Part shown: positions 40,947 through 57,231 of the stretch, in pieces
Layout: each line of letters opens with the position of its first letter
Numbering within the stretch: position 1 is the first letter of the stretch
NCBI RefSeq assembly: GCF_000619805.1
Contig: NZ_JHUV01000009.1
Span: 101,771 to 165,770 of the forward strand
Source of the DNA: Sulfurihydrogenibium subterraneum DSM 15120
Lineage (GTDB): Bacteria; Aquificota; Aquificia; Aquificales; Hydrogenothermaceae
Direction: 5' to 3'
DNA: 64,000 nucleotides
Program-made: the position numbers and the translations under genes
The notes under the pieces: model-generated
The model's database searches: none
The model's input: only the letters and a program-made list of their open reading frames with translations
Told to the model about the DNA's origin: nothing

Positions 40947-41339
40947 TTGTATATGGCTAAGGTTGTAAAATTTAACTTTGAAGATTTACAAGAAAATACT
41001 ACAACAGAAGATAAACAGCAGGAAACTCCTCAGCAAGATGAAAAAGATCTTATAAGACAAGCTTTAGAAGACCATGTACTTTCAAACTTTGCCGTAAAAA
41101 CTATACTAGGAATGAACTTTGTATATAAAGTCAATAAAAACGACGTAGGAGTTATAGGACAACTTGCTTACGAGCACAAAAGAAGACCTGGGGTGTTTGT
41201 TGCAGATTACATAGCAAAAGGATATAAACAAAAAGACAAGTATATAATAGACAGTCTTGCATTTGAACTAGGAGAACCAGAATTTTATAAACAGATCTTT
41301 AACATTCTAAAAGCTAAAAAGGCTCTTCCAGAGTTATAA
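40947..41339 (+). CDS. hypothetical protein (130 aa) whose stop codon abuts the right end of the TnpB element
   Basis: ORF with an acidic, Q-rich N-terminus and no motif. The stop TAA at 41337-41339 is immediately followed by the element's terminal hairpin. Confidence 0.4.
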   Translation: MYMAKVVKFNFEDLQENTTTEDKQQETPQQDEKDLIRQALEDHVLSNFAVKTILGMNFVYKVNKNDVGVIGQLAYEHKRRPGVFVADYIAKGYKQKDKYIIDSLAFELGEPEFYKQIFNILKAKKALPEL

Positions 41340-41560
41340 GGTACACTTACAGATACTAACTGGTAAACAAATGTAATCAAAAGATTATAAAAAATTGTTT
41401 ACCAGTGTTCTCTTGCAGTGTACCCGTAATGGCCTTCTACCTGCTATCTCTAATAAAGACTCGCAGGTTACTTTTGAAATTAAGTTAAGTGTTAATCTTA
41501 TCGGCCTCGAAAGTTTGTCTATTAGTGTTTCCTCGTCTATTAGAGGCTTTGCCTCTTTCC
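41338..41560 (-). ncRNA. candidate omega-RNA (reRNA)-like scaffold overlapping the tnpB 3' end and right end
   Basis: By analogy with IS605 TnpB elements, the omega-RNA derives from the tnpB 3' end plus the right end. This ~220-bp segment is the part conserved in the ORF-less derivative copy, and it contains nested inverted repeats (41360-41370/41395-41405 and 41340-41352/41413-41425). Confidence 0.3.
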
Positions 41561-43007
41561 TTAATATGTTATAACTCCCTACTGCATTTGCGTTAAATAC
41601 TTTATTCGTTATGTTATCTTTATATAGCCCTCTTTTTATTCTTATTCCGTTATAAAGTTGGTTTAATTTCTCTTTTAACTGCTTTAAAATTCCTTCATTC
41701 CCTTCCGTTTTTGCTTTTAAATACTCTTTCCCTGTTTCTAATACTTTGTGTAAATCTGCAAATGGTGATGTCTTACTTGTAAATTCTTCTGCTACTTCTG
41801 TTAATTTTACTCCGTATTCTTCTAATTTATATTTTAACTGATTTATTAGCTTTCTAAAAGGTATGTTTACAAAGTTTTGGTTTGTTTTTGTGCTGAGGTT
41901 TATTCCGTTTTTACTTTCTGTTGCTCCTTTTCCTATATAGACTTCTTTATGTCCTGTTTCATTTAAAAAGTCTGTTATTTTTCTTGTTATCTTATGGAAT
42001 GTATCTGTTATCCATCTGTTTCTGTATGCTGATAATTCTTTTTGTTTTTTTATTAGTAGTTTCTTTTCTTTCTCTAAGGCTGTTGTATCTAAATTGTCTT
42101 TTTGTAGTTTGTTTATCTGGTTTTGAATGTTATCTATTTTTGATTGCAGTTTTGCTTTTTCTTTGTTATACCACTGATTTATTGATTTTATTTCTTTGCC
42201 TGATACTATTATTGTCTGTAATTCTTTGTTTGTTGAAAAGAGTGTTATTAGATTATCAAGTCCTAAATCTATTCCTGCTATGTGTGTTTTTTCTTGATTA
42301 GAGTTAATTTGTGTTTCTGGTATTGTGTAAACTATATCCACGTATATATCGCTTGCTATAAACTTTATTCTTGCTGATTTTATTTCATAGTTAAAGTCTT
42401 TTGGTAATTTTACTTTTAGATACTGTTTTTCTTCTTTATTATTTGTTAGTGTTATTAGTAGATGTTTTCCTTTTTCTTCTTCTAATACTTTAAATGTGTT
42501 TACATTAAGTTCTGCTGTAAATGATGGAATGTCTTTTAATTTTTTAGCTTTTGGTGGTCTTGGAATTGCATTGAAGGAATTTGAATTTTCTTTATATTTT
42601 TGTATGCTTTTGAAAAAACTTTTGTAGTCTTTTATAAGTTGTCTTATTAGTGTTTGGACTGTGTAGTTGTTTTTTATTTTTTGTTTTTGTTTTATTAGTT
42701 TATCTTGAAAATCTTTTAGCTGGTTTACTTTCTCTATATTATCTGTAATAGTTTTAAATTCTTTAAGTTTTTCTATGAAATTCTCTTTACTTTCTCTTGG
42801 TTTATAACCTTTATTATTTACAAGTGCATACAGATAACTCTCATTTAGTATCCATCTTCCGTAGTTTTGTTGATATATTTTGTTGAAGATAATAAGCAGG
42901 TTTCTAAATTGCGCTAATGAGTATAGAAGGTTTGATATTTTTTCTTTTCTCTGTTTTCCGCTTATCCTGATGCTTAGTATTCTTTTTGCTGTTTTATTTA
43001 ATTGCAT
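41385..43007 (-). CDS. TnpB-like (IS605 OrfB family) protein, 540 aa, with degenerate RuvC-II/III residues and no zinc finger
   Basis: TnpB-like N-terminal region (RILSIRISGKQRKEKISNLLYSLAQFRNLLIIFNKIY), a WED-like segment, and a RuvC-I motif IAGIDLGLDNL. The YKLEEYGVKLTEVAEEFTSKTSP segment aligns to the TnpB RuvC-II to zinc-finger junction but has no Cys. The RuvC-III-like motif FNANAVGSYNIL carries Asn where the catalytic Asp is expected. The whole protein has only 2 Cys. Confidence 0.6.
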   Translation of the reverse strand: MQLNKTAKRILSIRISGKQRKEKISNLLYSLAQFRNLLIIFNKIYQQNYGRWILNESYLYALVNNKGYKPRESKENFIEKLKEFKTITDNIEKVNQLKDFQDKLIKQKQKIKNNYTVQTLIRQLIKDYKSFFKSIQKYKENSNSFNAIPRPPKAKKLKDIPSFTAELNVNTFKVLEEEKGKHLLITLTNNKEEKQYLKVKLPKDFNYEIKSARIKFIASDIYVDIVYTIPETQINSNQEKTHIAGIDLGLDNLITLFSTNKELQTIIVSGKEIKSINQWYNKEKAKLQSKIDNIQNQINKLQKDNLDTTALEKEKKLLIKKQKELSAYRNRWITDTFHKITRKITDFLNETGHKEVYIGKGATESKNGINLSTKTNQNFVNIPFRKLINQLKYKLEEYGVKLTEVAEEFTSKTSPFADLHKVLETGKEYLKAKTEGNEGILKQLKEKLNQLYNGIRIKRGLYKDNITNKVFNANAVGSYNILRKEAKPLIDEETLIDKLSRPIRLTLNLISKVTCESLLEIAGRRPLRVHCKRTLVNNFL

Positions 43008-43118
43008 TTAATATTTTTTTTGCTTTTATTTGTATAATCATATAATTTTTTGATATAATTTGTCAATAAGTTTTAAGAAACTATAGGCTATATATTCACT
43101 AAAAAGAGAGGTTTAAAA

Positions 43119-56349: not shown

Positions 56350-56907
56350 GTTTTGTCTGAACTATGTGGGATAGAAAGGAAAATCAAAAAAATAGCTGAA
56401 GAAGAGCTACAAGCTGGTTTTGTCTGAACTATGTGGGATAGAAAGTTGAAGCTGCTTTGTTAACAACTTCTGCTTTTATTACGTTTTGTCTGAACTATGT
56501 GGGATAGAAAGGAACATTTTTTTATTATTTTCTTTTTTATTTTTTCTAGTTTTGTCTGAACTATGTGGGATAGAAAGACGAGTGCTGTTATTATAGCACC
56601 CGCATAAGGAAAAAGTTTTGTCTGAACTATGTGGGATAGAAAGTTTCTAACATGACATCATCAATCTCAAAATATTTTTTGGTTTTGTCTGAACTATGTG
56701 GGATAGAAAGTCATCGTATTGAGAGGTAAATTTTATCACTGGGACTAAGTTTTGTCTGAACTATGTGGGATAGAAAGTAATTCTCCCTGCCACGAATGAC
56801 TGCACTGATACCTGTTTTGTCTGAACTATGTGGGATAGAAAGGTTTTTCTTCTGGGTTGTAGTATTTCCTGTATTCCTGTTTTGTCTGAACTATGTGGGA
56901 TAGGTTT
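56350..56907 (+). CRISPR. CRISPR array of nine 29-nt repeats (GTTTTGTCTGAACTATGTGGGATAGAAAG) and eight 36-38-nt spacers. The last repeat is degenerate, and no cas genes occur within the window.
   Basis: Perfect direct repeats begin at 56350, 56417, 56483, 56549, 56615, 56682, 56749 and 56814, with a degenerate copy at 56879-56907 (...GGGATAGgttt). An AT-rich 300-bp leader lies between tRNA-Ser and the first repeat. The repeat 3' end, ATAGAAAG, resembles a Cas6-type 8-nt handle. Confidence 0.9.
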
Positions 56908-56957
56908 AATTACAATTTTTAAACAGAGAGCTTATAAAAACGATTATGATATCGTTT

Positions 56958-57231
56958 ATAGTTTCTAAAAACTTATTGACAAATCATATCGAAAGATTAT
57001 ATAATTATGTATATGAAAGCAAAAGAATATTAAAAGTTTTAAGAATAAGTAGAATAACATAATTAATGAAAGAGGCAAAGCCTCTAAGGACGGTAAGATT
57101 AACGCTTAACTTAATTTGAAAAGTAACCTGCGAGTCTCTATTAGAGATAGCAGGTAGAAGGCCATTACGGGTACACTGCAAGATAGCTTTGTTTACCAGT
57201 TAGTATCTGTAAGTGTACCTTGAATGATGAA
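56958..57231 (+). mobile_element. internally deleted (MITE-like) derivative of the 41338-43080 TnpB element, in the opposite orientation
   Basis: 56958-57047 aligns, on the opposite strand, to 43000-43080 (for example ATAGTTTCTAAAAACTTATTGACAAAT). 57061-57231 aligns to 41340-41550 with a ~30-bp internal deletion and a 41-to-6-bp indel. Its + strand still encodes a C-terminal remnant, ...KVTCESLLEIAGRRPLRVHCK, interrupted by a TGA. Confidence 0.6.

Follow-up and report, generated by a model that had tools for sequence, protein, structure and literature searches.

Altae-Tran et al. (2023, PMC10691335) described TnpB clades, named RIIr, that have Gly in place of the RuvC-II Glu and another Glu to compensate for it; these clades are regarded as probably active, their mobility being equal to that of other clades. 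Yoon et al. (2023, PMC10711439) located an alternative Glu (Ealt) six positions before the first CxxC, or zinc-finger, Cys, a position that is used by active Fanzors, and distinguished a separate Ealt clade with a D-hydrophobic-G RuvC-I motif. TnpBs are particularly common in Aquificae, and the zinc finger has been lost in some large TnpB branches (PMC10691335), so that it is not strictly defining for TnpB. The TldRs of Wiegand et al. (10.1101/2023.11.30.569447), by definition, retain fewer than two of the three Asp-Glu-Asp (DED) residues of the RuvC site; their lesions are clade-conserved, they are often C-terminally truncated, they are devoid of transposon ends, and they show linkage to genes of the host or of phages (fliC, oppF), their guides matching promoters. 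The same preprint cautions against spurious dead calls for TnpBs with an alternative Glu. Here, we analyzed a TnpB element in a 64,000-nt stretch of Sulfurihydrogenibium subterraneum DSM 15120 (contig NZ_JHUV01000009.1, positions 101,771 to 165,770), the whole of which is referred to as the window. A preliminary description of this locus, made from the sequence alone, had presented it as an IS605/IS1341-like, tnpB-only element encoding an apparently inactivated protein that resembles TldRs, on the grounds of a missing RuvC-II Glu, a missing zinc finger and an Asn at the position of the RuvC-III catalytic Asp. Our analysis argues that the locus is likely a mobile, tnpA-less copy of a TnpB element that was recently disabled by one point mutation, and not a domesticated TldR-like regulator. 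The kind of element, a TnpB/guide-RNA transposon with a rearranged RuvC-II from a zinc-finger-less clade, is already known; what is new is a private and probably inactivating mutation.

Family characters and a private change in the RuvC site

The tnpB gene was taken from the list of open reading frames (ORFs; 41385..43007, minus strand, 540 aa), and its product is 100% identical to a Sulfurihydrogenibium subterraneum protein annotated as a member of the RNA-guided endonuclease InsQ/TnpB family. It scored above the cut-offs of NCBIfam NF040570 (guided_TnpB; 107.3 bits, cut-off 100) and of the Pfam families OrfB_IS605 (47.6, cut-off 30.5) and TNB (29.4, cut-off 26.3). The TNB match stops at position 33 of the 60 of the profile (positions 1-33), indicating that the zinc-ribbon half is absent from the protein. 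An AlphaFold2 model built on 49 homologues (mean predicted local distance difference test score, pLDDT, 85.6) found its best Foldseek matches in the Protein Data Bank among Cas12f (AsCas12f), ISDra2 TnpB, ISFba1 TnpB and Fanzor2 complexes, with E values from 1e-13 to 1e-8; as modeled, the protein shares the WED/REC/RuvC fold with Cas12f and TnpB. A direct phmmer search against the sequences of the same database returned only spurious apolipoprotein matches, the similarity to ISDra2 TnpB being too low, and since this search was insufficient, the alignment to AsCas12f was made via the family profile. We conclude that the ORF is a real gene and that its product is a TnpB, as had been proposed from the architecture of this minus-strand ORF: the hidden Markov model searches and the structure prediction, both of which the preliminary description had named as checks, place the protein in the TnpB/Cas12f family. 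The motifs cited in that description were found at residues 245 (GIDLGLDNL), 355 (EVYIGKGAT), 393 (YKLEEYGVKLTEVAEEFTSKTSPFADL) and 471 (FNANAVGSYNIL). The YKLEEYGVKLTEVAEEFTSKTSPFADL stretch is indeed free of Cys, and the protein has only two, C515 and C531.

The catalytic positions were then read in two alignments. One comprises 103 close homologues, each of at least 450 aa and with 37-83% identity, from Persephonella, Venenivibrio, Desulfurobacterium, Hydrogenobacter, Aquifex and hot-spring metagenomes. The other is a diverse set, the best 149 representatives (at the 50%-identity level) of the 971 clusters retrieved at E<=1e-30 when 1.84 billion cluster representatives were searched exhaustively with a profile. 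The RuvC-I catalytic Asp, D247 (codon 42267..42269, minus strand; motif GIDLG), is intact in the window protein and is Asp in all 103 close homologues and in 144 of the 149 representatives, the other five being gaps. At the canonical RuvC-II Glu position, by contrast with AsCas12f, in which the catalytic Glu of 'tiqmE' lies opposite the '...vyiG' of the family profile, the window protein has G359 (codon 41931..41933, minus strand). This Gly is present in 102 of the 103 close homologues and invariant in a 49-sequence alignment (A1), and the position is Gly or Ser in 148 of the 149 diverse representatives. About 48 residues downstream, E407 (codon 41787..41789, minus strand) is Glu in 103/103 close homologues and in 145/149 diverse representatives. 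It lies exactly six residues ahead of S414, the residue found where the first zinc-finger Cys would be (...vdEsyTSKtS... versus ...dPxyTSQxCxxC), in conformity with the ExxxxxxC rule of PMC10711439; in the AlphaFold2 model, it sits in a loop that follows a strand at residues 401-405. From its position and conservation, E407 would thus be the catalytic Ealt residue. E364 and E404 were considered as compensating residues and rejected, being Glu in only 30 and 46 of the 149 representatives, respectively, against 145 for E407.

The zinc finger is likewise missing throughout the clade. No CxxC pair occurs in any of the 103 close homologues, only one of the 149 diverse representatives has two or more CxxC motifs, and, instead of a zinc ribbon, the AlphaFold2 model has a helical hairpin (residues 419-452); neither the window protein nor its clade has a C4 zinc finger between RuvC-II and RuvC-III. 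Since Gly or Ser at the Glu position and the missing zinc finger are clade-wide and E407 is invariant, two of the three supposed lesions are normal family characters. The preliminary description was therefore right that no acidic residue stands at the canonical RuvC-II position and that the zinc finger is absent, but neither character is a sign of inactivation. It had also allowed that intact D/E/D residues and a zinc finger might be found elsewhere in the protein: the Glu was indeed found elsewhere, the zinc finger nowhere, and the third Asp is replaced. By these sequence characters, the protein belongs to the rearranged-site Ealt/RIIr TnpBs and to a large clade that is frequent among Aquificota and other thermophiles. 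With the RIIr/Ealt and D-hydrophobic-G clades (PMC10691335, PMC10711439) it shares the Gly in the canonical Glu position, the conserved Glu placed six residues ahead of the Cys position, the GIDLG motif, and the abundance in Aquificota. It differs from these systems in having no zinc finger, with the helical hairpin in its place and Ser414 at the first Cys position, and in carrying the change described below.

The family RuvC-III motif reads FNAD(L/A)VGA(L/Y)NI, and in the window protein the catalytic Asp is replaced by N474 (codon 41586..41588, minus strand), as had been noticed beforehand. The Asp is found in 102 of the 103 close homologues and in each of the 143 diverse representatives aligned besides the window protein, which alone has Asn. 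The codon is AAT in the window and GAT in the relatives, a single G-to-A transition. Among the 80 columns conserved at 93% or more, the window protein deviates at one, the N474 column, which makes this its sole private lesion. The RuvC triad of the window protein therefore consists of D247, a Glu at the alternative position (E407) and, as third residue, Asn474. This change should most likely abolish or strongly reduce cleavage, because RuvC/RNase H-type nucleases and TnpB need an intact DED triad; in the literature cited by the TldR preprint (10.1101/2023.11.30.569447), changing any residue of the triad abolishes TnpB activity.

Insertion site, ends and ancestry of the element

The limits of the element were defined by comparison with an empty site, found via the protein homologues of the 130-aa neighboring gene (40947-41339, plus strand) and their contigs. 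In close relatives, the orthologue of this neighbor (128 aa) is directly followed by a nitronate monooxygenase gene. The empty site, in relatives L014/L015 and L012/L013 (loci from other genomes are designated by L numbers), reads ...GAGTTATAA|TATATTCAC..., the same junction being also given as ...CCAGAGTTATAA|TATATTCACTAAAAAG..., and the occupied site in the window reads ...GAGTTATAA[GGTACAC...CTATAGGCTA]TATATTCAC.... The whole element is thus a 1751-bp insertion (41340..43090, minus strand), with boundaries ambiguous by 1 nt (alternatively 41339-43089) owing to one T common to both junctions; no target-site duplication was seen at the junctions when the window was compared with the empty site. 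The flanking genes of L014, the closest relative, differ from those of the window by a synonymous divergence (dS) of 0.10-0.26. The TAA stop of the neighbor (41337-41339) and its C-terminus KALPEL are already present in the empty site, so that the neighbor protein is unchanged and the insertion starts at, or one base inside, this stop codon. This precise empty site bears out a tnpB-only element with recognizable ends and an end abutting the stop codon of the neighbor, as had been described, with the addition that the stop predates the insertion; the limits first given, 41338-43080, are corrected to 41340-43090.

Homologous insertions lie in unrelated neighborhoods: those of L001-3 are flanked by an HhH-GPD gene and a DUF501 gene, those of L004/5 by genes for a permease and a citrate synthase, and those of L006-8, L016 and L017 lie in further gene contexts. 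No conserved association with a host gene emerged across the inspected homologous loci. Synteny between these loci and the window, sought for more empty sites, was not found, and a metagenome scan with the 130-aa neighbor protein gave one distant match, of no use for the empty site. A scan of a genome collection from which the source genome is absent, with a degenerate 33-nt pattern of the right end, retrieved two loci only, both in metagenome-assembled genomes. Taken together, the precise empty site in relatives and the unrelated neighborhoods of the homologues show that the locus is a mobile insertion. As a separate observation, L016 (2501-5731, on an 883-kb contig) carries two family tnpB genes (524 and 507 aa) tail to tail, one of which represents a cluster of 28 member sequences, suggesting a genome that is highly multi-copy for this TnpB family.

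The left end (43008..43090, minus strand) has a sigma-70-like promoter, TTGACA, an 18-nt spacer and TATGAT (43066..43037; 11 of 12 matches in a promoter scan). At the other end, the last ~225 nt fold better than shuffled sequence (z = -5.4) and encode a predicted guide-RNA (omega/reRNA) scaffold (41339..41563, minus strand), which overlaps the 3′ end of tnpB, extends to the right end and includes the hairpin CTGGTAAACAA...TTGTTTACCAG. In RNAalifold consensus structures from alignments of 7-8 loci, compensatory changes were found in 8 of 30 and 12 of 34 pairs, among them a stem that varies from CCUGC/GCAGG to CCUGU/ACAGG and CCCGU/ACGGG and the right-end hairpin, which varies from CUGGUAAACAA/UUGUUUACCAG to GUAGAAGG/CCUUUUAC. 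The scaffold core GTAnCCTGCGAGTCT...GATAGCnGGTAG is retained down to 50% protein identity. No Rfam family matched the guide-RNA region, only tRNAs and CRISPR repeats being reported.

The flanks of the insertion provide candidates for the target motif and the guide. The 5′ flank, read on the element strand, ends in ...AATATAT, with a putative motif resembling a transposon-adjacent motif (TAM), TATAT, at 43090..43094 (minus strand). The corresponding flanks of other copies are CATAT (L001), AATAT (L007), TATAT (L008), GATAT (L006 and the second copy of the window, described below) and TACAT (L005), which suggests a motif of about (N)AYAT. TATAG was considered as the TAM and rejected, as the empty site puts the boundary inside that motif and the flank ends in ...ATAT. 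On the TnpB paradigm and from the empty-site junction, the predicted guide segment, TATAACTCTGGAAGAGCC... (41319..41338, minus strand), corresponds to the DNA directly 3′ of the right end (TATAACTCTGGAAGAG...) and runs antisense to the final codons of the 130-aa gene; a guide RNA reading through past the right end (41319-41339, minus strand) would be antisense to these codons and to the stop. A second TAM-adjacent match for the guide of the full copy or of the second copy was not found within the 64-kb window.

With ISDra2 TnpB (PDB 8EXA, 8H1J) the window system shares the WED/REC/RuvC fold (Foldseek E 1e-8 to 1e-10), a guide RNA that spans the 3′ end of the gene and the right end, and the logic of a TAM with a flanking guide. 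ISDra2 TnpB, however, has the canonical Glu, a CxxC zinc finger, a length of about 400 aa and a Y1 TnpA partner, whereas the window protein has 540 aa, with a longer helical N-terminal/REC part. In having no transposase gene inside it, the element resembles IS1341-type tnpB-only elements, but its relatives indicate an IS607 (serine recombinase) and not an IS605 (Y1) ancestry. In Desulfurobacterium thermolithotrophum (CP002543), a 200-aa MerR-type helix-turn-helix/serine-recombinase (resolvase) gene (L017:1912-2514) lies upstream of a family tnpB that is 50% identical to that of the window and overlaps its start by 14 nt, the IS607 layout. In L006, a 24-aa relic of the tnpA C-terminus (1937-2008) remains upstream of tnpB. 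The MerR-type serine-recombinase tnpA is absent from the window element, and a tblastn search of the window gave no match to it; no Y1 transposase was detected in the nine distinct homologous insertions inspected (L001-L008, L010, L016 and L017, several of them duplicates). A T directly follows the right end in all eight copies compared (both window copies, L001, L005, L006, L007, L008 and L010), and the right-flanking nucleotide is fixed in IS607-type elements (PMC10711439), which often carry RIIr/Ealt TnpBs. This fixed T, the 3′ guide RNA and the serine-recombinase tnpA of a relative are further likenesses to the RIIr/Ealt and D-hydrophobic-G systems, from which the window copy differs in having no tnpA. 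The nucleotide common to the junctions and the empty site is, however, a single T, whereas IS607 elements would have an identical dinucleotide at both junctions and at the target. IS200/IS605 elements, for their part, would have a Y1 tnpA partner, insert 3′ of a short motif without duplication and have subterminal hairpins at both ends; the window element has no target duplication, a 5′ motif of about ATAT shared with other copies, and a strong right-end hairpin (z -3.6), but no left-end hairpin. On the basis of the tnpA layout in L017, the relic in L006, the fixed T and the lack of a Y1 gene in the inspected loci, we describe the element as tnpA-less and derived from an IS607-like element with an Ealt TnpB, and not as the IS605/IS1341-like element first proposed.

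A second, internally deleted copy, already mentioned in the preliminary description, was delimited by BLASTN and alignments as a 268-bp segment (56953..57220, plus strand). It is 84% identical to the full copy in its left-end part and 94-100% in its right-end part, with 14 mismatches in 87 nt of the left-end part and 7 in 165 nt of the scaffold part (Fisher p=0.003). It retains the left-end promoter, conserved as TTGACA-18-TATAAT, and most of the guide-RNA scaffold, and it has neither tnpB nor the 5′ arm of the right-end hairpin. Such a short, internally deleted copy that keeps both ends resembles the PATE/MITE-like deletion derivatives of IS200/IS605/IS607 elements. Subvariant-specific bases that it has in common with L007/L010 indicate that it probably derives from a different source element. 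With its near-consensus promoter, this copy could give rise to a free-standing, guide-RNA-like transcript carrying the guide TGAATGATGAAAAATA.

Disabled copy, dead binder or active nuclease

In an active member of the family, the left-end promoter would drive tnpB, the 3′ end of the transcript would fold into the guide-RNA scaffold, with the DNA just past the right end as guide, and the ribonucleoprotein would cut empty sites that carry a motif of about (N)ATAT and an adjoining guide match. In Sulfurihydrogenibium subterraneum, the element sits directly behind the stop codon of a small conserved gene, and the G-to-A change to N474 would most likely have abolished or crippled cleavage in this copy while leaving RNA binding and DNA targeting intact. 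We infer that this mutation is recent. Nei-Gojobori ratios of nonsynonymous to synonymous divergence (dN/dS) between the window gene and its relatives are 0.16-0.19. Several points weigh against a recently disabled selfish copy. By branch, dN/dS is ~0.18 in the window lineage and ~0.20 in the sister lineage, and the ORF is intact; no relaxed constraint is detectable, meaning that either N474 is recent and covers under about one tenth of the branch, or the protein still has a use, such as a DNA-binding function that it may have kept. The sole change at a conserved site hits a catalytic residue, for which the chance is about 3 in 80 (about 4%); this agrees with a recent accident no better than with a selected inactivation, to which it lends mild support, be it by host selection against a genotoxic nuclease or by selection for a functional, nuclease-dead binder. 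Moreover, the loss of activity expected from Asp-to-Asn is extrapolated from other RuvC/RNase H enzymes, and the major RIIr clades of Altae-Tran et al. 2023 retain the zinc finger (PMC10691335), unlike the clade studied here.

The constraint on the protein and the position of its lesion would also fit an exapted, nuclease-dead, RNA-guided binder (TldR- or dCas12-like) that is kept by selection, perhaps represses a genomic target, and uses its own guide RNA or that of the 268-bp tnpB-less copy. Such a role, consistent with the full-length ORF, with a branch dN/dS matching that of active-looking relatives, and with the good promoter and better-conserved scaffold of the second copy, seems unlikely to us: N474 occurs in one sequence only, within an intact-ended insertion that is absent from close relatives, the homologues have neither a conserved gene neighborhood nor a partner gene, neither guide has a TAM-adjacent second target in the 64-kb window, and the second copy, apparently from a different subvariant, is without one arm of a covarying stem, while a recent mutation explains the constraint signal equally well. 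The resemblance to TldRs lies in the replacement of a RuvC catalytic residue, with the remaining fold and the guide-RNA region looking intact. In contrast to TldRs, only one of the three catalytic residues is lost, through a lesion that is private (N474 in one of 103 homologues and the sole non-Asp among 144 aligned representatives) and not clade-conserved, the protein is not truncated at its C-terminus, and the recent insertion, with intact ends and an empty site in relatives, has neither a fixed position beside a non-transposon partner gene nor any conserved host-gene association. These differences speak against the inactivated TldR-like derivative of the preliminary description. An intermediate state, in which a natural dead TnpB stands at the first step of domestication, still inside an intact element and under purifying selection, with the catalytic Asp as its sole altered conserved site, and acts as an RNA-guided binder, possibly also with the guide RNA of the promoter-bearing, tnpB-less copy beside the CRISPR array described below, is in our judgment decidedly unlikely.

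We consider it very improbable that the protein is still an active nuclease, either because Asn474 is tolerated in a rearranged site at high temperature or because the Asn is a sequencing or assembly error for Asp. TnpB active sites are malleable, some clades having a His at the RuvC-III position (PMC10691335), AAT and GAT are one base apart, and the rest of the protein is conserved; on the other hand, the near-invariance of the Asp in the family points to a strong functional need, the cited effect of mutations in the DED triad argues the same way, and nothing in the data points to a sequencing error. At the opposite extreme, the whole family could be a large clade of nuclease-dead RNA-guided binders, as the lesions listed in the preliminary description would imply, the canonical Glu position being Gly or Ser and the CxxC pairs wanting across the clade. 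This is scarcely credible, as D247, E407 and D474 are near-invariant clade-wide, which would be unexpected without catalysis, E407 lies at the published Ealt position used by active Fanzors, and the members are mobile and multi-copy, in varied contexts, one of them with an IS607-type tnpA. We therefore favor a mobile copy disabled by its private D474N change. Seen in a single sequence, this change may equally be an accident or the outcome of selection; the protein could be of modest interest as a natural dTnpB from a thermophile, or be a snapshot of the onset of inactivation. More generally, motif-based calls of dead TnpBs give false positives in this large thermophile clade, the same problem as that raised by the TldR authors, and the locus provides a cleanly resolved example for the zinc-finger-less Ealt clade: besides its precise empty site, it offers a TAM-like motif, a guide and a covarying scaffold, and it connects the clade to an IS607-type tnpA.

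Neighboring features of the two copies

The second copy lies 45 bp past the last, degenerate repeat of a CRISPR array (56350-56907, plus strand), which comprises nine 29-nt repeats (GTTTTGTCTGAACTATGTGGGATAGAAAG; Rfam CRISPR-DR43). No cas gene was found among the neighboring ORFs checked (GatB, flavodoxin-like, CDGSH and AdoHcyase), so that the array looks orphan within the window. The 130-aa gene next to the full copy had no Pfam match, and it is conserved in Sulfurihydrogenibium and other Hydrogenothermaceae (20 homologues). According to the NCBI annotation and to these homologues, its protein begins at MAKVVKF and has 128 aa, the TTG start of the ORF list lying two codons further upstream.

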